The translations under genes were made by a program, and so were the position numbers. This document shows positions 7,458 through 54,581 of a stretch of DNA of 64,000 bases, in pieces (position 1 is the first letter of the stretch; each line of letters starts with the position of its first letter). Source of the stretch: Gammaproteobacteria bacterium (GTDB lineage Bacteria; Pseudomonadota; Gammaproteobacteria; Eutrophobiales; Eutrophobiaceae); contig OZ241853.1 in the NCBI GenBank assembly GCA_965202685.1, positions 1,176,262-1,240,261 on the forward strand, written 5' to 3'. The notes beneath the pieces are model-generated. The model was given only the letters and a program-made list of their open reading frames with translations. It ran no database searches and was not told where the DNA came from.

Positions 7458-7610
7458 CTTGTTTTTAGCTTGTTAGTTTTTCGTCAGGCAACTGGCGTGA
7501 GGAGCGAGGAAGGGAGTGTGCAAGCAGCACATGACTGACTGAACGCGGAAGCGCCAGGACGCATGGCGGAAAACTAACAAGCTAAAAGCTAAAATGGTAG
7601 AATTGGGTGA

Positions 7611-9278
7611 ATGCTCAAACGCCTCCCTTTCATCCTGTTTGTCGCGGCCCTGGTTCTGGGCGCCTTCTTTGCTGGCATGTGGGTCTGGCAAGCCCGCGTG
7701 TTTCCCTATCACTTGGCGCACTCCGCTCACAAAACCCTGAGGGTCGCTCTGGAAATGCGCAACTTCATCGCGTCTGGAGACAGGGACAAGTTAGTGGCCG
7801 CGGCCCGGCGCGTCGCGCTGGAAAACGCGCCGGAGGGCGAAAGCAACAAGTTAAACACGGCGGACCTGCTTGAGTGCGACAGGTCCGAGGCGGCAAAGAA
7901 AACGAGGAGAAAACTTCGGTCAGAAAAATTCAAGCAACTGGGATGTCTGACAGCGCGCGTTGCCCGCCGCGAGGCGAGTGCAAAGCGCATCGAGTTCATC
8001 GTCGCCGACCGGCTCCATGACCCGGTGCTGGTAGGGGGAGGGGTCGGCATGTTTCTTGAGCATTGTCCACCCCCTCCGCATTCGGGGTTGTCTGGGGGTT
8101 GCTTGGCGGTGGAATATTCGCGCAATGGCGAAGTGAGCCGCGCCGTGCCATTCCGGCCCCAAGCCATCGAAGCGGCCAATATCGTTTCTGAAGAGGACTA
8201 CCTTTCTGAACATCCCCCGGGTTGGGTGTTCTGGAGAAATGTGAATGTGGTGTCAGTCGCCCCCTACCCTGACGGAGACTTGTTGGTCACTTTTCGACTG
8301 GCCCATACTTTTCCCTATGGCGGCGGCGCGGCCCGCGTGGCGCGAGACGGGCATCCGCGCTGGTTTCGCAAGGACTACAGCCACCACTGGCCCCATATTG
8401 TCGATGACCAACTCGCCTTGGTCCCAGGCGGGCGAATGGAATGGGGAAACAACGTTCTGCCCATGCGGGTGGGACATCTGAAAAAAGACATAACCTGTCA
8501 TCGCGATCAGAAATGGATGGTTGACACCGTCAACCTGATAGATGGCAAGGGGCGTCTATTGGAAGAGATTGACATCTTGGGCGCGTTGCTCGAATCTCCC
8601 TACAACGGCATCTTCCTCCTCCAGCTTAGGCAGTGTGATGTCACTCATCTTAACTTCGCGCACCAGCTGGGCGCCGACGCGGGCGGCGCGGACAGCATCG
8701 CCCCAGGCGACATCGTGGCCTCGTTGCGGAGTCTTAGCGCGTTCGGCATCATAGACCGGGACACTCGGCGGCTAAAGCGGTTGGTGCGAGGCAGTTTCGT
8801 CAATCAACACGCTGTCCGTCACTTTGAGAAGGCGCGGTTTCTCATGTTTGACAACTTGGGCACCGATGGCGTTCACGGCCCGTCCCGCTTGTTGATGGTT
8901 GACTTGGCCACCGGCAAGGAAACCACGCTGTTCCCCCGGGACCACACTCCGACCCATCTGCGCCGGGTTACGGCTGTCAATGGCCATATAGAGGTGTCGC
9001 CGGACCGGCAACGCGTTCTCTTCAATGAAAAAACACACGGCCGGATTCTGGAGTTGCGCCTTTCCGATGGCCGGGTTTTGAACATTTTTCGCCAGTTGCA
9101 TGATCTGTCGAGCGTCGATGCCATTCCTGACCCCTTTCGGCAACGGGCGTGGGTTTTCCAATCGGGGGCTTCTAGTTACGCTAACCAATGGTCCGATCAT
9201 CCCTCGACCGTTTCTTTTTCCTCAACATTGACGGCAAGATCGCCATCCGCCACGGAGACGAAAACGCGCCCGCCATGA
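7611..9278 (+). CDS. Membrane-anchored periplasmic protein of unknown function (paralog A). Weak resemblance to arylsulfotransferase-like beta-propeller proteins.
   Basis: 555 aa. N-terminal signal-anchor (LPFILFVAALVLGAFFAGMWVW) then a large soluble domain. Paralogous to 52851-54581. The C-terminal ~30 codons overlap the convergent clpA 3' end, so the real stop may be earlier. Confidence 0.6.
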   Translation: MLKRLPFILFVAALVLGAFFAGMWVWQARVFPYHLAHSAHKTLRVALEMRNFIASGDRDKLVAAARRVALENAPEGESNKLNTADLLECDRSEAAKKTRRKLRSEKFKQLGCLTARVARREASAKRIEFIVADRLHDPVLVGGGVGMFLEHCPPPPHSGLSGGCLAVEYSRNGEVSRAVPFRPQAIEAANIVSEEDYLSEHPPGWVFWRNVNVVSVAPYPDGDLLVTFRLAHTFPYGGGAARVARDGHPRWFRKDYSHHWPHIVDDQLALVPGGRMEWGNNVLPMRVGHLKKDITCHRDQKWMVDTVNLIDGKGRLLEEIDILGALLESPYNGIFLLQLRQCDVTHLNFAHQLGADAGGADSIAPGDIVASLRSLSAFGIIDRDTRRLKRLVRGSFVNQHAVRHFEKARFLMFDNLGTDGVHGPSRLLMVDLATGKETTLFPRDHTPTHLRRVTAVNGHIEVSPDRQRVLFNEKTHGRILELRLSDGRVLNIFRQLHDLSSVDAIPDPFRQRAWVFQSGASSYANQWSDHPSTVSFSSTLTARSPSATETKTRPP

Positions 9279-11810: not shown

Positions 11811-11899
11811 TTGTTTGACTTTCAGGGCGAATGATAGTGCAGTAAAGACGCCATTGCAACTTGCAGTTTTCCGTCATGCTGCCTAGCGCGACACTCGAG

Positions 11900-12012
11900 G
11901 GCCTAGCTTGGGGTCGGGCTTTTTGCGACACGCTGTGAATCCATCCTTGGACGCTCTCGGCGCGGCCATCCAGGCCGCACAGGGTCTTAAAGGCCCTGCC
12001 CCAAGCTACGCC
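11900..12012. repeat. ~115-nt hairpin-forming intergenic element (module C), copy 1 of 5. Candidate structured RNA or ERIC-like palindromic repeat.
   Basis: gggcctagcttggggtcgggcttttt...ccatcc...gctctcggcgcggccatccaggccgc(a/g)cagggtcttaaaggccctgccccaagct. The outer ~17-bp stem has compensatory changes across the copies at 25213-25348, 36600-36735 and 43893-44022, plus a truncated copy at 39036-39100. Confidence 0.6.
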
Positions 12013-12192
12013 CCTTTTAGCTTGTTAGTTTTCCGTTATCCTGCCTGGCGCTTCCGCGTTCAGTCAGTTTAGCTTGTCACATCCGCCATGCATCGCGGCA
12101 TTTCTTCACGCGGTCGGTCATGTATTTGACATACACTCCCTCCCGCGCTCATCATGCCGCTTGCCTGACGAAAAATTTCCGTCGCTAAATGC

Positions 12193-18639: not shown

Positions 18640-18790
18640 CTTTTAGCTTGTCAGTTTTCCGTTTTAGCTTGTTAGTTTTCCGCCATGCATCGCGGCATCT
18701 CTTCGCTCGGTCAGTCATGTATTTGATATACACTCCTTCCCGCGCTCATCACGCCGCTTGCCTGACGAAAAATTTCCGTCGCTAAAAGGG
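18640..18790. repeat. Exemplar of the ~125-bp MITE-like intergenic repeat (modules A+B, forward orientation). The family fills every spacer between 7446 and 57100 in both orientations.
   Basis: ttttagcttgttagttttccgccatgcatcgcggcatctcttcgctcggtcagtcatgtatttgatatacactccttcccgcgctcatcacgccgcttgcctgacgaaaaatttccgtcgctaaaa. Its reverse complement occurs e.g. at 29893-30033. The termini ttttagc…gctaaaa form a short inverted repeat. Confidence 0.8.
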
Positions 18791-18837
18791 TTGCGGGATA
18801 ACGGAAAACTAACAGGCTAAAAGGGTAATATGGCGGC

Positions 18838-22854: not shown

Positions 22855-23105
22855 CTTTTAGCTTGTTAGTTTTCCGTTTTAGCTTGTTAGTTTTCCGCCA
22901 TGTGGCGCGGCGTTTCCTCGCTCGGCCAGTTTTAGCTTGTTAGTTTTCCGTTATCCTGCCTGGCGCTTCCGCGTTCGGCCAGTCATGTATTTGACATACA
23001 CTCCCGTCCTCGCTCATCACGCCGCTTGCCTGACGAAAAACTTCCGTCGCTAAAAGGGTTGCGGGATGGCGGAAAGCTAACAAGCTAAAAGGGTAATATG
23101 GCGGC

Positions 23106-25172: not shown

Positions 25173-25212
25173 TTTTAGCTTGTTTTAGCTTGTTAGTTTT
25201 CCGTTATTCTGC

Positions 25213-25348
25213 CTGCGCGACCCCCGAGGGCATAGCTTGGGGTCGGGCTTTTTACGACACGCTGTAAATCCATCCGCGAGACGCTCTCGGCGCGGCCATC
25301 CAAGCCGCACAGGGTCTTAAAAGCCCGACCCCAAGCTGCGCCCCTTTT
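25213..25348. repeat. Module C hairpin element, copy 2
   Basis: agcttggggtcgggcttttt…aaaagcccgaccccaagct: a perfect 17-bp outer stem, with the stem sequence co-varying relative to the other copies. Confidence 0.6.
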
Positions 25349-25617
25349 AGCTTGTTAGTTTTCCGCCATCCCGCAACACTTTTAGCGACGGAAGTTTTTC
25401 GTCAGGCAAGCGGCGTGACGAGCATTTAGCGACGGAAGTTTTTCGTTAGGCAACTGGCGCGACAAGTGAAGGAAGAAGTGTGCATAAAGCACATGACTGA
25501 CTGAACGCGGAAGCGCCAGGCAGGATAACGGAAAACTAACAAGCTAAAACTGACCGAGCGAGGAAACGCCGCGCCACATGGCAGAAAACTAACAAGCTAA
25601 AAGGGTAATATGGCGGC

Positions 25618-36575: not shown

Positions 36576-36599
36576 CTTGTTAATTTTCCACCATCCTGC

Positions 36600-36735
36600 C
36601 TAACGCGACACCCTAGGGCCTAGCTTGGGGCAGGGCTTTTTACGACACGCTGTGAATCCATCCTTGGACGCTCTCGGCGCGGCCATCCAGGCCGCGCAGG
36701 GTCTTAAAAGCCCTGCCCCAAGCTACGCTACCCCG
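36600..36735. repeat. Module C hairpin element, copy 3
   Basis: agcttggggcagggcttttt…aaaagccctgccccaagct: a perfect stem with a third stem variant. Confidence 0.6.
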
Positions 36736-37025
36736 TCTCCCCTTTTAGCTTATCGCGCCAGTTGTCTAACAGAACCTGCAACACTTTTAGCGACGGAAGT
36801 TTTTCGTCAGGCAAGCGGCGCATTGGCCACTTTTTAGCGACGGAAGTTTTTCGTTAGACAACTGGCGCGACAAGTGAAGGAAGGAGTGTGCAAACAGCAC
36901 ATGACTGACTGAACGCGGAAGCGCCAGGCAGGATAGCGGAAAACTAACAAGCTAAAACTGACCGAGCGAGGAAACGCCGCGCCACATGGCAGAAAACTAA
37001 CAGGCTAAAAGGGTAATATGGCGGC

Positions 37026-39008: not shown

Positions 39009-39399
39009 CTTGCCAGTTTTCCGCCATGCATCCTAAGCGCGACATCTGAGGGCCTAGCTTGGGGCAGGGCTTTTTGCGACACGCTGTAAATCCATCCGAG
39101 CAAGGAGACGCCAAGCAGGATCACGGAGCCTGCAACACTTTTAGCGACGGAAGTTTTTCGTCAGAAAACTGGCGCGACAAGTGAAGGAAGGAGTGTGCAA
39201 ACAGCACATGACTGACTGAACGCGGAAGCGCCAGGCAGGATAACGGAATCTGCAACTATTTTAGCGACGGAAATTTTTCGTCAGGCAAGCGGCATGATGA
39301 GCGAGGTCGGGAGTGTGCAATTAGCACATGACCGAGCGAGCGAGGAAACGCCGCGCCACATGGCGGAAAACTAACAGGCTAAAGGGGTAATATGACGGC

Positions 39400-41385: not shown

Positions 41386-41423
41386 CTTGTTACATCCGCC
41401 ATGCAACTTGGCGAATTGACCAC

Positions 41424-41760
41424 TGTTTTAGCGACGGAAATTTTTCGCCAGGCAACTGGCGCGACAAGTGAAGGAAGGAGTGTATGTCAAATACATGACT
41501 GACTGAACGCGGAAGTGCCAGGCAGAATAACGGAATCTGCAACTATTTTAGCGACGGAAATTTTTCGCCAGGCAACTGGCGCGACAAGTGAAGGAAGGAG
41601 TGTATGTCAAATACATGACTGACTGAACGCGGAAGTGCCAGGCAGAATAACGGAATCTGCAACTATTTTAGCGACGGAAATTTTTCGCCAGGCAACTGGC
41701 GCGATGAGCGAGGGCAGGAGTGTATGTCAAATACATGACTGGCCGAGCGAGGAAACGCCA
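41424..41760. repeat. Tandem repeat, ~120-bp unit x ~2.7, composed of the intergenic MITE-like modules
   Basis: Unit ttttagcgacggaaatttttcgccaggcaactggcgcgacaagtgaaggaaggagtgtatgtcaaatacatgactgactgaacgcggaagtgccaggcagaataacggaatctgcaacta repeats at 41424, 41544 and 41664. Confidence 0.85.
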
Positions 41761-41859
41761 GGACGCATGGCGGAAAATTAACAAGCTAAAACTGACCGAG
41801 CGAGGAAATGCCGCGCCACATGGCAGAAAACTAACAGGCTAAAAGGGTAATATGGCGGC

Positions 41860-43892: not shown

Positions 43893-44022
43893 GCGCGCCA
43901 ACCAGGGCCTAGCTTGGGGTGGGGTTTTTTGCGACACGCTGTAAATCCATCCTTGGACGCTCTCGGCGCGGCCATCCAGGCCGCGCAGGGTCTTAAAAGC
44001 CCCACCCCAAGCTACGCCCACC
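43893..44022. repeat. Module C hairpin element, copy 4
   Basis: agcttggggtggggtttttt…aaaagccccaccccaagct: a stem with a fourth co-varying variant. Confidence 0.6.
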
Positions 44023-44117
44023 CCACCCTTTTAGCTTGTCAGTTTTCCGCCATCTCGCAATACTTTTAGCGACGGAAGTTTTTCGTCAGGCAAGCGGCAT
44101 GATAAGCGCGGGAGGGA

Positions 44118-46118
44118 GTGTATATTAAATACATGACCGACCGCGTGAAGAAATGCCGCGATGCATGGCGGAAAACTGACAAGCTAAAAGGCTTGGCGTT
44201 GAGCGTGTGGGCCTTGTTCCTGATAGCGGGCCTCGCCATCGTCGATGACTACGGCGTCTCGTCGGCTACGGAACCCCAGCGTCTTATCGCCATCAACACC
44301 CTCAATTATGTCCTGCATAACGACCCAACCCTGTTGCAAATAGCCGCTGACCGCTTCTACGGCGCCGCCTTCGAGGCGCCCCTGTTCCTGTTGACGGAAC
44401 GGGGCCTGGGCCTGGAAGACCCGCGCCATGTCTATTTAGCTCGCCATGCCCTGACCCATCTGTTTTTTCTGCTTGGCGGGTTCTGTTGCTATCTGTTGGC
44501 GTTTCGCTTGTCCGGCAACCGGCTGGCGGCGCTGTTGGTCATGGCGCTGTTCCTGCTGTCCCCGCGTCTCTACGCCCATTCCTTCTTCAACAGCAAGGAT
44601 CCAGTGTTCGCCAGCGCCTTCGTCATGGCCTTGCTCGTTGTGAGCCGCGCCTTTGACAAGGACTCGGTGGGGGGCTATCGGTGGGGCGGGGCGGCAACGG
44701 GGCTTCTCATCCACCTGCGCGTCATGGGCGTGGTTCTGTTTGCCGCCGTGTTGCTCTTTCGGGCTTGGGCCTGGTTTCGGGCCGGGGGTGGCGCGGCGCG
44801 GCGGCGGGTTGTGGCGACCACTGGCGCTTTCGCCCTGTGGGGGGTCCTTGTCTTGTTCATCAGCCTGCCCTATCTCTGGGGCGACCCCGCAGGGCGGTTT
44901 TCAGAATATTGGACAGTGTTGGCCGACCATCCTGTCGTTTCTAATGAATTATTTCGGGGCAAGGTGTTTTCCAGCGCGGCGTTGCCTTGGGACTATGTGT
45001 CGCACTGGTTCGTCATCAGCCAGCCGCCGGTGACCTTGTTGTTGGGGCTGTTGGGCCTAGTGGCCCTGGGCCTTGCCGCTGGGGGCGTCGTCAGACGCGG
45101 CGCGGGCGCCAGGCCGGGCGCGGCATGGGGGGGTGCCGAGTTGCGCTTCGGCATGTTGCTCGCAACCTGCTTTGCGTTGCCCCTGGTCGCCTTTGCGCTG
45201 TTGCGACCTAACACCCTCACTGGCTGGCGGCATTTTTATTTCCTGCACGGGCCTTTTTGCCTGCTGGCGACCTTCGCCCTGATGGGGTTGCGCCAGCTGG
45301 CGGCGCGGGGGTTGCAAAGGGGCTTGCTGAGCGGCGCGGCGTGCGCGCTGACGGTGGTGGGACTGGGCGCGGCGGCGTTGGAGATGGCGCAGATCCATCC
45401 CAACCAGCACCTTTATTTCAACTTTTTGGCGGACCGGAAAACCCCGGAGCGGCTACGGGCCCGCTACACCATGGATTACAATTTCATGGCGATGCGGCAG
45501 GGTTACGAATACCTGTTAAGACAAACCCCGTCCGCCGCCATTAACCTGGGAAAAAATCACTTCATCTCGAGGCTCATGTGGGGTGCAATGATTCTTCCCG
45601 CGGCAGACCGGCACCAGCTCACCTACGACCGCAGTCGCGACCCGGATTTCTATTTAAGCGGAAACGCAAGGCGAATCTTCTTGCTCAAAGATCCTTTCCC
45701 CCCTGTTCTCCATCGGCTCAAGGTCTATAACAACACCATTATAACCGTATCCACGCCGGATTTGTCCCGGGTTGCCCCGGCGGTGGCGGAGGCGTATCGG
45801 GCTTTGCATCGGGCGGCGACGGCGGGGGAACCGGTGGCGCGTGCGAGCGGCTATGAAGTCCACCGGCACGGCCAGCGGCTGGCATGGGTGAAAGAGGCTT
45901 GCGAGCCTGGGGAATTGATGTCGCCGTTCTGGCTCGCGCTTTATCCGGCGGACGCGGGCCGTTTGCCGGAATCGCGCCGGCGATGGGGCTACTTTATGCT
46001 CGGCACCCTTGGGGTGCGGTTTGACGGCAAGTGCCTGGGAGCAACGCGACTGCCGGACTTCGCCCTGGCCCGGGCGCGCCTGGGGCAACCAGGGAAGTGG
46101 ATCGAGTTGCCTCTTTAG
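44118..46118 (+). CDS. Array copy 15: GT-C-like paralog with 5' end replaced (junction ~44189)
   Basis: 666-aa ORF begins in the repeat (MYIKYMTDRVKKCRDAWRKTDKLK) and joins the family sequence at GLALSVWALF. Confidence 0.75.
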   Translation: MYIKYMTDRVKKCRDAWRKTDKLKGLALSVWALFLIAGLAIVDDYGVSSATEPQRLIAINTLNYVLHNDPTLLQIAADRFYGAAFEAPLFLLTERGLGLEDPRHVYLARHALTHLFFLLGGFCCYLLAFRLSGNRLAALLVMALFLLSPRLYAHSFFNSKDPVFASAFVMALLVVSRAFDKDSVGGYRWGGAATGLLIHLRVMGVVLFAAVLLFRAWAWFRAGGGAARRRVVATTGAFALWGVLVLFISLPYLWGDPAGRFSEYWTVLADHPVVSNELFRGKVFSSAALPWDYVSHWFVISQPPVTLLLGLLGLVALGLAAGGVVRRGAGARPGAAWGGAELRFGMLLATCFALPLVAFALLRPNTLTGWRHFYFLHGPFCLLATFALMGLRQLAARGLQRGLLSGAACALTVVGLGAAALEMAQIHPNQHLYFNFLADRKTPERLRARYTMDYNFMAMRQGYEYLLRQTPSAAINLGKNHFISRLMWGAMILPAADRHQLTYDRSRDPDFYLSGNARRIFLLKDPFPPVLHRLKVYNNTIITVSTPDLSRVAPAVAEAYRALHRAATAGEPVARASGYEVHRHGQRLAWVKEACEPGELMSPFWLALYPADAGRLPESRRRWGYFMLGTLGVRFDGKCLGATRLPDFALARARLGQPGKWIELPL

Positions 46119-48328: not shown

Positions 48329-48742
48329 CTTGTTAGTTTTCCACCATGCGTCCTGGCGTTTCCTCGCTCGGCCAGTCATGTATTTGACATACACTCCTGC
48401 CCTCGCTCCTCACGCCAGTTGCCTGACGAAAAACTTCCGTCGCTAAAATAGTTGCAGTTTTCCGTTATTTTGCCCGGTGCTTCCGCGTTCAGTCAGTTTA
48501 GCTTGTTAGTTTTCCGCCATGCATCGCGGCGTTTCCTCACGCGGTCAGTCATGTATTTAATATACACTCCATCCCGTGCTCGTCACGCCGCTTGCCTGAC
48601 GAAAAACTTCCGTCGCTAAAAGTGTTGCAGGCTCCGTTATCCTGCCTGGCGCTTCCGCGTTCAGTCAGTCATGTATTTGATATACACTCCCTCCCTCACT
48701 TGTCGCGCCAGTTGTCTAACGAAAAACTTCCGTCGCTAAAAA

Positions 48743-50729
48743 ATGGTCAATTCACCGCTTGCATGGCGGAAAACTAACAAGCTAAAACGGGCCCGATTTC
48801 ATAGTCTGGCGCTGGTCGTGTGCGCCCTGTTTTTGATAGCGGGCCTCGTCATCGTCGATGACTACGGCGTCTCGTTAGATGCGGATGGACAACGCCGTGT
48901 CGCCATCAACACCCTCAACTATGTCCTGCATGAAGTCCAAACCCTGTTGCGAACCCATGACCGCTTCTACGGCGCCGCCTTCGAGGCGCCCCTGTTCCTC
49001 TTGACGGAACGGGTCCTGGGCCTGGAAGACCCGCGCCATGTCTATTTGGCCCGCCATGTCTTGACGCACTTGTTTTTTCTAATCGGCGGGTTCTGTTGCT
49101 ATCTGCTGGCGCGGCGCTTGGCCGGCGATCGTCTGATCGCGCTGTTGGTCATGTTGCTGTTCCTGCTGTCCCCGCGTCTTTACGCCCATTCCTTCTTCAA
49201 CAGCAAGGATCCAGTGTTCGCCAGCGCCTTCGTCATGGCCTTGCTCGTCGTGAGCCGCGCCTTTGACAGGGACTCGGTGGGGGCCTATCGGGGGTGCGGG
49301 GCAATGGCAGGATTTCTCATCAACCTGCGCATCATGGGCGTGGTTCTGTTTGCCGTCGTGTTGCTCTTTCGGGCCTGGGCCTGGTTTCGGGCCGAGGGCG
49401 CGGCGCGGCGGCGGGTTGTGGCGACCGCTGGCGCTTTCGCATTGTGGGGGGGTCTTGTCTTGTTCATCAGCCTGCCTTACCTCTGGAGGGACCCCGCAGG
49501 GCGGCTGGCGGAAATGGTCGCGCTGTTGTCCCACCATCCTAACATTGTCTTCGAACTGTTCCGGGGTCAGGTGTTTTCCAGCGCGGCGTTGCCTTGGGAC
49601 TATGTGTTGCGCTGGTTCGCCATCAGCCAGCCGCCGGTGACCTTGTTGTTGGGGCTGTTGGGCCTGGGGGCCTTGGGTCTTGCCGCTGGGAGCGTCGTCA
49701 GACGCGGCGCGGGCGCCGGGCCGGGCGCGGCATGGGGGGGGGGGGGGGGGGGAGTTGCGCTTCGGCATTCTGCTGGCAACCTGTTTTGCGTTGCCCCTGG
49801 TCGCCTTTGTCCTGTTGCGGCCCACGCTTTTCGATGGCTGGCGGCATTTTTATTTCCTGCACGGGCCTTTTTGCCTGCTGGCGACCTTCGCCCTGATGGG
49901 GTTGCGCCAACTATCGGTTCGAGGGTTGCAAAGAAAATGGCACGGCGGCGTTGCCTGCGCGCTGACGGCAACGGGTCTGGGCACGGCGGCGTTGGAGATG
50001 GCGCAGATCCATCCCCACCAATATCTCTATTTCAACTTTTTTGTGGACCGGAAGACCCCGGAACGGCTAAGCGAGCGCTACGAGACGGATTACTGGAACA
50101 TGATGTTGCGGCAAGGGTATGAACACATCCTGCGGCAAGCGCCCGCTTCCACCATTAACATGAGGCCGCGATTCAACCGCAGTGTGCAGATTCTCCCGGC
50201 GGCGGCCCGGAGCCGGTTCACCTACGACCCCGAGCGGGATCCGGATTTCTACTTGGTAAGCAACACCATAAATTCGCCGTCAAGCATGCTTAAGGACTCT
50301 TTTCCTCCCGTTCTTCATCGGCTCAAGGTCTATAACAACACCATGTTGATCGTATCCACGCCGGATCTGTCCCGGGTTGACCCGGCGGTGGCGGAGGCGT
50401 ATCGGGCTCTGCATCGGGCGGCGACAGCGGAGGCGCCGGCGGCCCGGGCGGGGGGCTTCGATGCGCGCCTGCATGGCGAGCGGCTGGCGTGGGTGAAGGA
50501 GGCTTGCGAGCCCGGGGAATTGATGGCGCCGTTCCGGCTCAGGCTTTATCCGGCGGACGCGGGCCGTTTGCCTAGTGGAAGCTACTTCGAACTCGGCATC
50601 CGCGGGGTGCGGTTTGATGGCAAGTGCCTGGGGGCGGCGCGACTGCCGGATTTCGCCCTGGCCCGGATTCGCCTGTGGCAGTTCGTTCTTGGCGGAGGTT
50701 TGCTGTGGGAAACTGATATCCACTTCTAA
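48743..50729 (+). pseudogene. Array copy 17: GT-C-like paralog split by a frameshift at a G19 homopolymer (ORFs 48743-50122 and 49680-50729). Either a pseudogene or a phase-variable gene. 5' end is also the replaced type (junction 48787/48788).
   Basis: Other copies read ...ggcgcggcatgggggggtgccgagttgcgc... (GAWGGAELRFG). Here the sequence is catg + 19 G + agttgcgc, and the frame switches at the tract. The downstream ORF resumes the conserved ELRFGILLATCF... sequence. Confidence 0.7.
49734..49752 (+). repeat. Homopolymeric G19 tract inside array copy 17 (candidate slipped-strand phase-variation site, or a sequencing error)
   Basis: Counted directly: G run from 49734 to 49752. Paralogous positions in other copies carry G7-TGCCG. 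Confidence 0.8.
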
Positions 50730-50844: not shown

Positions 50845-52851
50845 ATGGTCAATTCACCGCTTGCATGGCGGAAAACTAACAAGCTAAAACGGGCCCGATT
50901 TCATAGTTTGGCGCTGGTCGTGTGGTCCCTGTTTTTGATCGCGGGCCTCGCCATTGTCGATGACTACGGCGTCTCGTGGGATGCGGGAGCCCAGCGTCTT
51001 ATCGCCATCAACACCGTCGACTATGTCCTGCATGATGACCCAGGCCGGTTACGATGGGTCGCTGACCGCTTCTACGGCGTCGCCTTCGAGTTGACCCTGT
51101 CCCTGTTGACGGAACGGGTCCTGGGGCTGGAAGACCCGCGCCATGTCTATTTGGCCCGCCATATCCTGACGCACTTGTTTTTTCTATTCGGCGGGTTCTG
51201 TTGCTATCTGCTGGCGTGGCGTCTGTCCGGCGACCGGCTGGTCGCGCTGTTGGTCATGTTGCTGTTCCTGCTGTCTCCGCGCCTGTACGCCCATTCCTTC
51301 TTCAACAGCAAGGATGCGGTGTTCGCCAGCGCCTTCGTGATGGCCTTGCTCTTTGTGTGTCGCGCCTTTGACAGGGACTCGGTGGGGGCCTATCGGTGGG
51401 GCGGGATGGCAGTGGGACTTCTCGTCCACCTGCGCATCATGGGCGTGGTTCTGTTTGCTCTCGTGTTGGTCTTTCGAGCCTGGGCCTGGTTTCGGGCCGA
51501 GGGGTGCGCGGCGCAACGACGGATTGTGGCGACCACTAGCGTCTTCGCCCTGTGGGGGGGCGTTGTCTTGTTCATCAGCCTGCCCTATCTCTGGGGCGAC
51601 CCCATAGAGCGGCTGGCGGAAATGGCCGTGGTGTCAGCTGATCATCCCATTCATCTTACCTCTTATGAGTTGTTCAGGGGGCAAGTGTTTCCTAGCGCGG
51701 CGTTGCCTTGGGACTATGTGTTGCGCTGGTTCGCCATCAGTCAGCCGCCTGTGGCCTTGTTGTTGGGGCTGTTGGGCCTGGGGGCCTTGGGTCTTGCCGT
51801 TTGGGGCGTCGTCAGGCGCGGCGCGGGTGCCGGGCCGGGCGCGGCATGGGGGGGCGCCGAGTTGCGCTTCGGCGTCCTGCTGGCAACCTGCTTCGTGTTG
51901 CCCATGGTTGCCTTTATTCTGTTGCGACCCACCACCATCGATGGCTGGCGGCATTTTTATTTCCTGCACGGGCCTTTTTGCCTGCTGGCGACCTTCGCCC
52001 TGATGAGAATGCGTCAGCTGTCAGTGCGAGGGTTGCGAAAAAGATGGGTTGGCGGCGCGGTCTGCGCACTGATGGCGGCGGGGGTGTGCGTCGTGGCCCT
52101 TGAGATGGCGCAGATCCATCCTAACCAGCATCTCTATTTCAATTTTTTTGTGGACCGGAAAACCCCGGAACGGCTAAACGAACGCTACGAGATGGATTAC
52201 TGGGACATGATGTTGCGGCAAGGATATGAACATATCCTGCGGCAAGCGCCCGCTTCCACCATTAACATGAGGCCGCGAGCGTCAGCGAACAACCGCCATG
52301 TGCAGATCCTGCCGGCGGCAGCCCGGAGCCAGTTCACCCACGACCCCGATCGGGACCCGGATTTCTACTTGGCAAGAAACGCCGGAATTCCGCCGCCAAG
52401 CTTGCTCAAGGGCTCTTTTCTCCCCGTTCTCCACCGGTTCAAGGTCTATAACAACACCATGATGACCGTTTCCACGCCGGATTTATCACGGATTGCTCCG
52501 ACGGCGGCGGATGCGTATCGGGCGTTGCATCAGGCGGCGACAGCAGGGGAACCAGCGGCCTGGGCGGGGGGGGTTGATGTGTATCTGCTTGGCGACCGGC
52601 TGGCGTGGGTGAAGGAGGCTTGCGAGCCTGGGGAATTGATGTCGCCGTTCCAGATCAGACTTTATCCGGCGGACGCGGGCCGTTTGCCTAGCGGTCTGCG
52701 GGAACGGGGTTACTTCGGACTCAGTGCCAGCGGGGTGCGGGTTGACGGCAATTGCCTATGGGGAACGCGACTGCCGGACTTCGCCCTAACCCGGATTCGC
52801 CTAAGGCAACCAGGGAAGTGGGAAGTTGAGGTAGTGGTAGAATTTGACTGA
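50845..52851 (+). CDS. Array copy 18: GT-C-like paralog. 5' end replaced (junction 50889/50890). 3' end lacks the family stop and intergenic spacer, and abuts the start of gene 52851.
   Basis: Family C-terminus ...GKWEVEV then continues VVEFD*. The stop TGA overlaps the ATG of the next gene (ttgacTGATGcc). The motif ggtagaatt at the junction matches the upstream region of paralog A (7596-7606). Confidence 0.75.
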   Translation: MVNSPLAWRKTNKLKRARFHSLALVVWSLFLIAGLAIVDDYGVSWDAGAQRLIAINTVDYVLHDDPGRLRWVADRFYGVAFELTLSLLTERVLGLEDPRHVYLARHILTHLFFLFGGFCCYLLAWRLSGDRLVALLVMLLFLLSPRLYAHSFFNSKDAVFASAFVMALLFVCRAFDRDSVGAYRWGGMAVGLLVHLRIMGVVLFALVLVFRAWAWFRAEGCAAQRRIVATTSVFALWGGVVLFISLPYLWGDPIERLAEMAVVSADHPIHLTSYELFRGQVFPSAALPWDYVLRWFAISQPPVALLLGLLGLGALGLAVWGVVRRGAGAGPGAAWGGAELRFGVLLATCFVLPMVAFILLRPTTIDGWRHFYFLHGPFCLLATFALMRMRQLSVRGLRKRWVGGAVCALMAAGVCVVALEMAQIHPNQHLYFNFFVDRKTPERLNERYEMDYWDMMLRQGYEHILRQAPASTINMRPRASANNRHVQILPAAARSQFTHDPDRDPDFYLARNAGIPPPSLLKGSFLPVLHRFKVYNNTMMTVSTPDLSRIAPTAADAYRALHQAATAGEPAAWAGGVDVYLLGDRLAWVKEACEPGELMSPFQIRLYPADAGRLPSGLRERGYFGLSASGVRVDGNCLWGTRLPDFALTRIRLRQPGKWEVEVVVEFD

Positions 52852-54581
52852 TGCCCAAACAACCCCCTTTTATCCTGTTGATCGCGGCCCTGGCTCTGGG
52901 CGCTTTCTTTGTGGCCATGTGGATCTGGCAACCCCGCATGTCCCTCCACCACTTGGCGCACTCTGCCCACAAGGCCCTGAGCGGAGCCTTGGAAATGCGC
53001 GGCCTCAGTGCGCCTGAAGACGATGACGAGTCAGTCGAATCCCTTGACGGAAGCAACGAGAAAAACACGGTGGGCCTGCTTGAGTGCGATAGGGATGAGG
53101 CGACAGAGAAAACGACGACAGAGAAAACGAGGATAAAACTTCGGGCGAAAAAATTCAGTCAACTGAGATGTCTGACAGCGCGCGTTGCCAGCCGTGAGGC
53201 GAGCGCAAAGCGCATCGAGTTCATCGCCGCCGAGAGATTCGATGACCCGGTGCTGGTAGGGGGAGGGATCGGCATGTTTCTTGAGCATTGTCCGCCCTCT
53301 CCACCGGGGCTGTCTGGGGGTTGCCTGGCGGTGGAATACTCGCGCAATGGCGAAGTGAGCCGCGCCGTGCCACTCCGGCTCCAAGCCATCAAAGAGGCCA
53401 ACATCGTTTCTGCATACAACTGGAAGGGTGAAGATCACCTCCACCGACAAGTTGATTGGCCAGAGCTGATAGTGCGCTCAGTCTCCCTTTATCCCGGTGG
53501 AGACTTGTTGGTCCATTTTGAAGTGGGTGTTCCTTTTTCCCACGGCGCCGGCGTGGCCCGCGTGGCGCAGGACGGGCGACCGCGCTGGTTTCGCGAGGAC
53601 TACAGCCAACCCTGGCCCCATATTATCGATGACAATCTCGCCTTGGTCCGAAGCAGGCAACCGCAACGACTGAGAACCAAGACTCTTCGAGTGAACCATA
53701 AGGAAAAAGTCGTGGCGTGTTATGAGAACTGGAAATGGCATGACACCGTCAACCTGATAGATGGCAGGGGACGTCTGTTGGATGAAATTGACCTCCTGGA
53801 GGCGTTGCTTGAATCCCCCTACAGCATCCTCTTTGAACGCAACTTTAACGGGCGCGACAACCCCGCTTTTACCAACTCCATACACCGCGGCGGATCTGGA
53901 TTCCCTCAGGGAGGCGGGTGCAACAATCCCGCTCTTACTAACTCCATACACCATTGCCGCCTGGCGGCCGGCACTTTGGCGGGATGCAACAACCCCGCTT
54001 TTGCTAACTCCATACACCAGCTGGGCGCCGACGCGGGCGGCGCGAACAACATCGCCCCGGGCGACATCGTGGCATCGTTGCCATTCCTCAACGCCTTCGG
54101 CATCATAGATCAGAACAACCGGCGGTTTAAGGAGCTGGTCCGGGGCAGTTTCATTCAGCAACACGCCGTTCGCCATCTTGAGAAGGCGCGGTTCCTCATG
54201 TTCGACTCGGGCAGCTTCCCGACCCGCTTGTTGATGTTTGACTTGGCCACCGGCAAGGAAACCACCCTGTTCCCCCGGGACCACACTCCGCCCCATCTGC
54301 GCCAGATTGCGCCCCTTAACTTTCCCCCCAACACCGGCTACGCTAAGAACTCCGAGTTCAAGATAGGGATACATATAGCGGTGGCGCCGGACCGACAGCG
54401 CATTCTCTTCGGCAAACCAAGGTCCGGCCTAGCTTTTGAGTTGCGCCTTTCCGACGGCCGGGTTTTGAACATTTTTCGCCAGTTGCATGATCTGTCGAGT
54501 GTCGTTAACATTCCTGACTTATTTCGGCAACGAGCGGGGGTTTTTCAGGCAACGGCTTATGACTATGCTAACCGGTTTTAG
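52851..54581 (+). CDS. Membrane-anchored periplasmic protein of unknown function (paralog B of 7611-9278), with an internal 63-bp x ~2.5 tandem repeat
   Basis: 576 aa. Same N-terminal anchor (PFILLIAALALGAFFVAMWIW) and shared blocks (CLTARVA(R/S)REASAKRIEFI, RWFR(K/E)DYS, LMxDLATGKETTLFPRDHTP, LRLSDGRVLNIFRQLHDLSSV). Repeat CNNPA(F/L)TNSIH occurs 3 times at 53862-54040. Confidence 0.8.
   Translation: MPKQPPFILLIAALALGAFFVAMWIWQPRMSLHHLAHSAHKALSGALEMRGLSAPEDDDESVESLDGSNEKNTVGLLECDRDEATEKTTTEKTRIKLRAKKFSQLRCLTARVASREASAKRIEFIAAERFDDPVLVGGGIGMFLEHCPPSPPGLSGGCLAVEYSRNGEVSRAVPLRLQAIKEANIVSAYNWKGEDHLHRQVDWPELIVRSVSLYPGGDLLVHFEVGVPFSHGAGVARVAQDGRPRWFREDYSQPWPHIIDDNLALVRSRQPQRLRTKTLRVNHKEKVVACYENWKWHDTVNLIDGRGRLLDEIDLLEALLESPYSILFERNFNGRDNPAFTNSIHRGGSGFPQGGGCNNPALTNSIHHCRLAAGTLAGCNNPAFANSIHQLGADAGGANNIAPGDIVASLPFLNAFGIIDQNNRRFKELVRGSFIQQHAVRHLEKARFLMFDSGSFPTRLLMFDLATGKETTLFPRDHTPPHLRQIAPLNFPPNTGYAKNSEFKIGIHIAVAPDRQRILFGKPRSGLAFELRLSDGRVLNIFRQLHDLSSVVNIPDLFRQRAGVFQATAYDYANRF

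Follow-up and report, generated by a model that had tools for sequence, protein, structure and literature searches.

A structured hairpin repeat, probably related to the TwoAYGGAY motif, in a glycosyltransferase gene array and in other Gammaproteobacteria

Proteins of the CsrA/RsmE type recognize GGA in hairpin loops at sites with a CANGGANG-type consensus, and one dimer binds two such sites. A motif carrying two loops of this kind is TwoAYGGAY (RF01731), whose closing stem P1 was noted in the original description to be frequently of great length, reaching 24 bp in one example (Weinberg et al. 2010, PMC2864571). In its deposited alignment, a single Psychromonas genome record contributes several copies, laid out as an A/U-rich stem, GCA, a hairpin CAUGGAUG, AAG, a second hairpin CAUGGAUG and UGC. 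TwoAYGGAY has been without an assigned function since 2010; CsrA binding was put forward in a published motif scan (PMC4333381), and this link is so far a proposal. Two other described RNAs are relevant, namely, Ysr224 (RF02770), reported to be an expressed, temperature-responsive and multi-copy small RNA (sRNA) of Yersinia, and RsmU of Xanthomonas, an RsmA-binding RNA derived from a 3′ untranslated region (3′-UTR), which indicates that short, gene-adjacent RNAs bearing GGA can bind RsmA (PMC7694677). Here we analyse a hairpin repeat of ~115 nt found in 64,000 nucleotides of contig OZ241853.1 (positions 1,176,262 to 1,240,261, assembly GCA_965202685.1) from a gammaproteobacterium of the Eutrophobiaceae; this whole 64-kb stretch is referred to as the window, and the repeat lies there among the spacers of a tandem array of glycosyltransferase genes. 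The comparisons below indicate that selection acts on pairing in this structured repeat, that the repeat belongs to a family that is uncatalogued and widespread in Gammaproteobacteria, and that it is probably a divergent relative of TwoAYGGAY.

Copies and pairing within the window

The window was searched by BLAST with the third copy (copies numbered from left to right), and full copies were detected at about 11879–12011, 25209–25341, 36595–36745 and 43894–44017, with 88–94% identity and E-values of 1e-43 to 1e-55, together with a 5′ half copy at 39032–39097. All were detected on the plus strand, and the window copies were aligned cleanly by MAFFT. A covariance model built later, R1, gave 68–84 bits for the four full copies and ~17 bits for the truncated one in a scan of the 64 kb, and neither BLAST nor R1 revealed any further copy there. 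A preliminary description of this DNA had reported five copies; its coordinates agree within a few bases with those from BLAST and R1, and all five loci were recovered, the one at 39032–39097 being half a copy.

Copy 1 (11899–12013, 76.7 bits with R1) has clpS on one side and the first array gene on the other, while the other four copies begin ~25–55 nt past the stop codon of an array gene: copy 2 (25228–25343, 68 bits) ~55 nt past that of gene 6, copy 3 (36616–36730, 84.2 bits) ~40 nt past that of gene 11 and copy 5 (43905–44019, 81 bits) ~40 nt past that of gene 14. Copy 4 (39032–39097, 17.2 bits, E 0.24) retains the 5′ arm and the core up to AATCCATCC, beyond which the sequence is unrelated. 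We assign all five copies to the minus strand as the putative functional strand, for the reasons given below; copy 1 had been written on the plus strand in the preliminary description.

The full copies were predicted to fold at −68 to −74 kcal/mol (z-scores relative to dinucleotide shuffles, −5.7 to −8.2), and their complementary strand folded about equally well. The closing stem consists of ~27 bp with one to three irregularities around a branched centre, instead of the 17 bp first proposed, and its length is in line with the long P1 of TwoAYGGAY. The claim that pairing is perfect within each copy holds for copy 2, in which TCGGGC/GCCCGA is fully compensated, and for copy 3, in which CAGGGC/GCCCTG is part of 20 contiguous pairs. 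It holds less strictly for copy 5 and fails for copy 1. The stem of copy 5 has two compensated variable positions (TG/CA) and one adjoining T.G wobble, with TGGGGT opposite GCCCCA in register; that of copy 1 is chimeric, joining the 5′ arm of the copy 2 type (TCGGGC) to the 3′ arm of the copy 3 type (GCCCTG), with one C.U mismatch and two wobbles as a result.

Two short hairpins are located in the branched centre. The inner hairpin noted earlier does exist, as GCGCGGCC-ATCCA-GGCCGCGC at 36677–36697 of copy 3; copies 3 and 5 show it without a mismatch and copies 1 and 2 with a single one, and its minus-strand loop, UGGAU, represents the first GGA loop. The conserved core of copy 3 (GACACGCTGTGAATCCATCCTTGGACGCTC, 36644–36673) reads GAGCGUCCAAGGAUGGAUUCACAGCGUGUC on the minus strand, where it contains the short hairpin UCC-AAGGAU-GGA, the second GGA loop. 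The window lineage varies at only three pair positions, of which the closing stem holds two and the inner hairpin one, so that the window alone is weak evidence for covariation.

Relatives in other Gammaproteobacteria

The core 20-mer GACACGCTGTRAATCCATCC, which forms the first 20 nt of the copy 3 core given above, was identified at 41 loci, including 29 in species-representative genomes and 12 on metagenome contigs, where our own arithmetic gives ~2 matches by chance. All of the named genomes are gammaproteobacterial: many belong to Xanthomonas, and the others include Shewanella, Marinobacter, Microbulbifer, Alkalimonas, Tolumonas, Oceanisphaera, Saccharospirillum and Aquisalimonas. The source organism of the window is not among these species-representative loci. 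No match was obtained for the 20-mer in a viral contig collection, for the whole element by BLAST against plasmids and 5,426 complete Escherichia coli genomes, or for a lineage-specific 23-mer in metagenome contigs. One metagenome contig (L030; ERZ23495697, 5265 nt) carries the same junction of clpA, clpS, copy 1 and first array gene with few substitutions, indicating the presence of close relatives of the source organism in that sample; one of these substitutions completes a compensatory change in the inner hairpin.

A common plan was observed at nearly all loci. The closing stem, unrelated in sequence between genera yet pairing, ends in GAC..GUC and is followed by the core ACGCTGTRAATCCATCCnTGGAnGCTC, by a hairpin of variable stem and conserved loop CATCCnTG, and by nAnGGTC; the core columns after the 20-mer are invariant or nearly so across the family. 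In the MAFFT alignment of 27 members from many genera, which was not fitted to a structure, 83.7% of cells held standard pairs, compared with 63.1% after column shuffles and 32–44% with a slid partner, and 21 of the 29 pairs had changed on both sides (covariation score 0.484 versus 0.144). The alignment of 53 distinct sequences fitted to the model, and hence biased towards structure, was 88.2% paired, compared with 62.9% when shuffled, a control inflated by related sequences, and 34–41% when slid. Unless pairing is selected for, it is difficult to account for the low values of the slid control and for the number of different pair types at each position. The inner hairpin stem showed compensated variation at seven of its eight pairs across the family, with a conserved loop, and the short second hairpin covaries in one of the Xanthomonas core types (type B), from C-G to A-U in eight sequences or to G-C in two. 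Selection on secondary structure, as first suggested from the local copies, is thus supported chiefly by the relatives in other genomes and less by the five copies of the window.

At the gathering threshold, the Rfam search recommended in the preliminary description returned no family in the window, and 18 related loci gave only tRNAs and a glycine riboswitch. At a permissive threshold, TwoAYGGAY (cut-off 43 bits) matched the minus strand of copy 3 (36604–36730) with 21.9 bits (E 0.3), a Bacterioplanoides locus (L017) with 23.5 bits and a Marinobacter koreensis locus (L004) with 39.5 bits (E 2.6e-05). Ysr224 (cut-off 70 bits) matched the plus strand with 12–22 bits across the window and its relatives, including 18.3 bits for copy 3. 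The two families therefore meet on opposite strands of the same elements, at L004 6195–6333, L017 7424–7684 and window 36604–36730.

With R1, additional copies were detected at the Xanthomonas loci, having either a type A (..GTGAATCCATCCATGGACGCTC) or a type B (..GCAAGTACGTCCATGTAAGCTC) core and lying in strictly alternating orientation at spacings of ~160–230 nt and with a period of ~390 nt (L027 79–718, L013 1421–2061, L003 124–591 and L024 1052–1299). One Xanthomonas copy (L010 4479–4573) is a head-to-head fusion of a type A 5′ half and an inverted type B core, forming a palindromic dimer. The alternation, which is BIME-like, favours the possibility that the family is a DNA-level repeat akin to REPINs or MITEs, or else a hairpin of single-stranded DNA. 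Copying would then be due to a transposase or to replication and recombination, and the palindrome would be kept by DNA processes and have no RNA function. The multi-copy nature of the family, shared with TwoAYGGAY and Ysr224, is in agreement with this possibility, as are the recombinant arms of copy 1, the truncation of copy 4 and the direct repeats of a TTTTAGCTTGTTAGTTTTCCG module found on both sides of each local copy. We nevertheless regard it as unlikely, since the arms differ both within a genome and between genera around a conserved centre, which is the reverse of REPINs and MITEs. Furthermore, no RAYT/Y1 or other transposase domain and no recombinase domain was detected in the flanking genes of the window that were scanned, the hairpin ends show no target-site duplication, orthologous loci have retained the copies in several Alkalimonas genomes and two species of Shewanella, and the plasmid, E. 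coli and viral collections gave zero matches.

Strand, proposed role and the glycosyltransferase array

The mismatches in the two variable stems were used to compare the strands. Across the family, 58 cells form G.U on the minus strand (A.C on the plus strand), compared with 10 of the reverse kind; counted as one event per position and arm lineage, the numbers were 36 for the minus and 14 for the plus strand (binomial p = 0.0026). This bias was observed in both Xanthomonas core types, which lie in opposite genomic orientation, and this argues against a simple mutation bias of the replicated or transcribed strand. The inner hairpin of the window lineage also favours the minus strand, forming a series from C-G (copies 3 and 5) through C.A on the plus strand, equivalent to G.U on the minus strand (copies 1 and 2), to U-A (L030). 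Judged by the wobble asymmetry of the family and the two GGAUG loops, the functional RNA would more likely be the minus strand.

Based on these observations, we propose that the element acts as a minus-strand docking RNA. The long closing stem, drifting between lineages with compensation, would hold a nearly invariant centre on that strand, formed by two short hairpins with loops GGAU(G) ~25 nt apart and a subsequent tail, GGAUUYACAGCGUGUC. This centre would serve as a docking platform for a dimeric RNA-binding protein, for which CsrA/RsmA appears the likeliest candidate, with one dimer per element. In the sequences, two GGA loops ~25 nt apart are present on the minus strand, with a family-wide loop (CA)NGGAUG; both fit a CANGGANG-type CsrA site in most relatives, and the first loop of the window copies differs from it by one base. 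Taken as a whole, mechanism included, this TwoAYGGAY-related docking RNA is quite possible and is the explanation that we prefer, albeit somewhat short of probable; binding by CsrA itself is our leading guess for the protein and is more doubtful than that.

The origin of the minus-strand transcript may be found in the sequence that adjoins the copies. Alignment showed a ~100-nt leader, ..CGCTTGCCTGACGAAAAAYTTCCGTCGCTAAAAGKGTTGCGGGATRRCGGAAAACTAACARGCTAAAAGGG, to be nearly identical between the sequence on the right of the copies, read on the minus strand, and the plus strand upstream of type-I array genes. Next to the leader comes either TAATATGGCGGC-ATG with the gene or, 0–14 nt on, the hairpin in its GGA orientation. 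An inverted copy of this leader (..CGCTTGCCTGACGAAAAACTTCCGTCGCTAAAAGTGTTGCGGGATGGCGGAAAACTAACAAGCTAAAAGGG) at 25344–25425 runs directly into copy 2 on the minus strand, and equivalent inverted modules are located to the right of copy 3 (about 36731–36880) and of copy 5 (about 44020–44140); to the right of copy 1, the proximal part of the leader alone is present. Because copies 2, 3 and 5 directly follow a full leader, they would be transcribed on the minus strand if the leader holds the promoter of the genes. We infer that minus-strand transcription could start from a gene-type promoter in the leader, convergent with the upstream gene; protein binding and any regulatory effect on the array are likewise inferred. 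A broader version is unlikely: the family would constitute dispersed, single-dimer CsrA/RsmA docking RNAs of many Gammaproteobacteria, Xanthomonas included, with TwoAYGGAY and Ysr224 as its two strands, and in this organism antisense transcription from promoters of the glycosyltransferase-gene type would tie a surface-glycosylation array of 20 paralogues to the Csr system.

A number of observations weigh against a docking RNA of the minus strand. The window copies fall below the TwoAYGGAY cut-off (21.9 versus 43 bits), and their loops, CUGGAU and AAGGAU, keep GGAU and are neither of them a strict AYGGAY, whereas most relatives, such as those of Xanthomonas and Marinobacter, have AUGGAU in both loops. 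As these score and loop tests fail, we file the element as a TwoAYGGAY-related variant and not as a member. In the literature, we found CsrA binding of TwoAYGGAY as a published hypothesis and no experimental demonstration of it. A scan with the sigma-70 consensus identified no convincing promoter on either strand near the copies. The closing-stem wobbles of the window itself favour the plus strand (4 versus 1), a difference that is not significant and partly depends on the placement of a bulged T. The strand asymmetry could equally come from a single-stranded DNA hairpin; an asymmetry of G.T mismatches also fits one active DNA strand, as the DNA-level explanation would have it. The remaining points concern the plus strand: the orientation check suggested in the preliminary description showed every local copy pointing the same way as the array genes, just past stop codons; by crude calls of open reading frames (ORFs), the plus orientation is co-directional with the upstream gene in the window and four other lineages, compared with two in which it is opposite, statistics that are too noisy to settle the strand; and Ysr224, reported as an expressed RNA, matches the plus strand.

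These last points speak for the main rival, in which the element would be a plus-strand 3′-UTR hairpin, co-transcribed with the upstream glycosyltransferase gene in the manner of REP or ERIC sequences in mRNA; a mobile or single-stranded DNA element ranks next. Such a hairpin would block exonucleases, cause partial termination or insulate neighbouring paralogues, with another role or none for the conserved core. It would account for the position of four of the five copies ~25–55 nt behind a stop codon, for the placement of relatives in plus orientation 22–63 nt behind a co-directional ORF (L004, L012, L021/L023 and L022), for the stability of the plus-strand fold and for the UUUUAGCUUGUU that directly follows copies 1 and 2. 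However, as the copies arose as duplicated segments, their local orientation does not count as independent evidence, and a 3′-UTR hairpin leaves unexplained why a 30-nt unpaired core is near-invariant across orders while the stems drift. The wobble asymmetry of the family favours the opposite strand. A general role as a terminator, also raised in the preliminary description, is not borne out: UUUU directly follows the stem in two of the four full copies (copies 1 and 2), is 12–14 nt off in copies 3 and 5 and was absent after the relatives inspected by eye, and the copies were not flagged in a terminator scan. We therefore consider the 3′-UTR hairpin rather unlikely, although ahead of the DNA-level repeat.

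The array in which the copies are located consists of ~20 tandem, co-oriented paralogous genes for proteins of 650–696 aa (12193–56889), 80–93% identical across conserved stretches, and weak matches to Pfam PMT_2/PMT suggest that the products are GT-C-type membrane glycosyltransferases. It is flanked by clpS-clpA and a polysaccharide-synthesis cluster on one side and by ksgA-pdxA-surA-lptD on the other. An array of this size is unusual for the GT-C enzyme class and may reflect variable surface glycosylation. The member at 48743–50729 appears frameshifted, with overlapping ORFs at 48743–50122 and 49680–50729, and is probably a pseudogene. Two long ORFs, at 52851–54581 (576 aa) and 7611–9278 (555 aa), had no Pfam match, the first being embedded in the array and overlapping the stop of the preceding gene by one base.

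The building block of the mosaic spacers is a ~125-nt unit that ends in 7-nt inverted repeats (TTTTAGC/GCTAAAA) and occurs in either orientation, one to four times per spacer, for example as one unit at 27580–27707, as three at 41386–41859, at 48329–48742 and, outside the array, at 7463–7588. The unit holds an imperfect palindrome, TGTATTTGATATACA, and resembles an invertible segment or a MITE; no recombinase for it was detected among the flanking genes scanned. Of the eight spacers with units in minus orientation, four contain the hairpin, and all 10 with units in plus orientation lack it. In this unusual array of ~20 paralogues it is a marker of certain spacers, and the mosaic spacers of two orientations themselves merit study. 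Every array gene stops within the start of a spacer unit (..TTTTAG|CTTGTTAG). Three alternative 5′ ends occur among the array genes, M(A/S)AMTNRIGERARFH, MVNSPLAWRKTNKLKRARFH and MTDQARKRRDAWRKTDKLK (gene starts at, for example, 18838, 27708 and 29962); for the latter two, the coding sequence appears to be that of spacer units read in reverse. Each array gene is accordingly bracketed by inverted copies of its own leader. The leader of type-I array genes (e.g. 18770–18837 and 23040–23105) carries two GGA motifs, GGGAUGG and CGGAAAA (GCGGGAUGGCGGAAAAC). They shortly precede a Shine-Dalgarno-like AAGGG and are candidate CsrA sites if the organism has CsrA.

Since the local copies have homologous flanks and include one chimeric and one truncated copy, they represent duplicated spacer segments, and not independent insertions or samples. 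Judging from these features, the window copies multiplied inside the array as spacer segments were duplicated or underwent gene conversion. The same features, together with the small number of locally variable pair positions, suggest a further explanation, by which the hairpin would be a by-product of array dynamics, a palindromic spacer segment moved by unequal crossing-over whose arms are kept by intrastrand templated repair and not by selection. This is largely refuted as a full explanation by the relatives, in which the same core and architecture occur at dozens of unrelated loci and in other genera, with wholly different yet pairing stems. It is highly improbable in that form and survives as the mode of spread within the array.

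Comparison with described repeats and RNAs

Several classes of element were considered and set aside. Integron attC sites do not apply, as no R″/R′ core sites (RYYYAAC/GTTRRRY) were found at the hairpin ends and no integrase among the window genes scanned, and the relatives occur in both orientations. No reverse transcriptase, as expected of a retron, was detected in the flanking genes scanned, and there is no spacer-repeat pattern of a CRISPR. A coding reading disagrees with stems that vary with compensation and not by codon. The primer-derived ends of RsmU of Xanthomonas, GACGCGAGGAUGCGUGGCC.. and ..CCGACAAGACGUGAAAUCGCC, are unrelated in sequence to the element.

The preliminary description had also named ERIC- and BIME-like repeats. 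ERIC/IRU are, like this element, intergenic imperfect palindromes of ~120 nt, and the octamer GTGAATCC is common to both. The family model, however, scored no more than 5 bits on a genuine ERIC locus of E. coli, found with the central 44-mer that is present in all 5,426 complete genomes of that species, and the element had no BLAST match in those genomes; the ERIC-like assignment was rejected on this basis. REP, BIME and REPIN sequences likewise are intergenic repeats that form hairpins, and the comparison with BIMEs suits the Xanthomonas relatives, with their clusters of two types in alternating orientation. It does not extend to the window copies, which lie 2–13 kb apart in the same orientation. 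The present family lacks the short palindrome headed by GTAG, and its variable arms and conserved centre are the opposite of the REPIN arrangement, so that membership was rejected.

With the CsrB/RsmZ sponges and RsmU, the element shares the display of GGA motifs in hairpin loops. It differs from them in having just two GGA loops and a long closing stem, and its binding of CsrA is a prediction. If the interpretation of the GGA loops is correct, small, dispersed, single-dimer decoys for a global regulator would exist beside the classic multi-site sponge RNAs.

The Ysr224 consensus ..GaCGCcGuaAAuaCauCCaUGUAgGCuCGagccGCGCCaUCCcuGGCGCggAC aligns to the core and inner hairpin on the plus strand, and both repeats are multi-copy; the match is far under the cut-off of 70 bits and lies on the strand opposite to that of TwoAYGGAY. 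Because TwoAYGGAY and Ysr224 match the same elements on opposite strands, RF01731 and RF02770 may each describe one strand of a single repeat superfamily, and this, if true, affects the annotation of such 'sRNAs'.

An sRNA, also among the candidates named in the preliminary description, may apply; the curated RNA family of closest likeness, TwoAYGGAY, matches the strand opposite to the one read there. The present family extends this motif to many cultivable Gammaproteobacteria, such as Xanthomonas, Marinobacter and Shewanella, in which binding and expression are easy to test. On the same strand, both have a closing stem of great length that is A/U-rich at its inner end, followed by a short stem (GAC..GUC in this family, GCA..UGC in Psychromonas), two hairpins with loops (C)AUGGAU(G), an AG linker and a 3′ strand ..CG(U)GUC, and both are multi-copy in a gammaproteobacterium. 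They differ in the second hairpin, which has a stem of just 3–4 bp in the present family and a long one in TwoAYGGAY, and in the conserved tail GGAUUYACAGCGU, which follows the second hairpin in this family and lies outside TwoAYGGAY.

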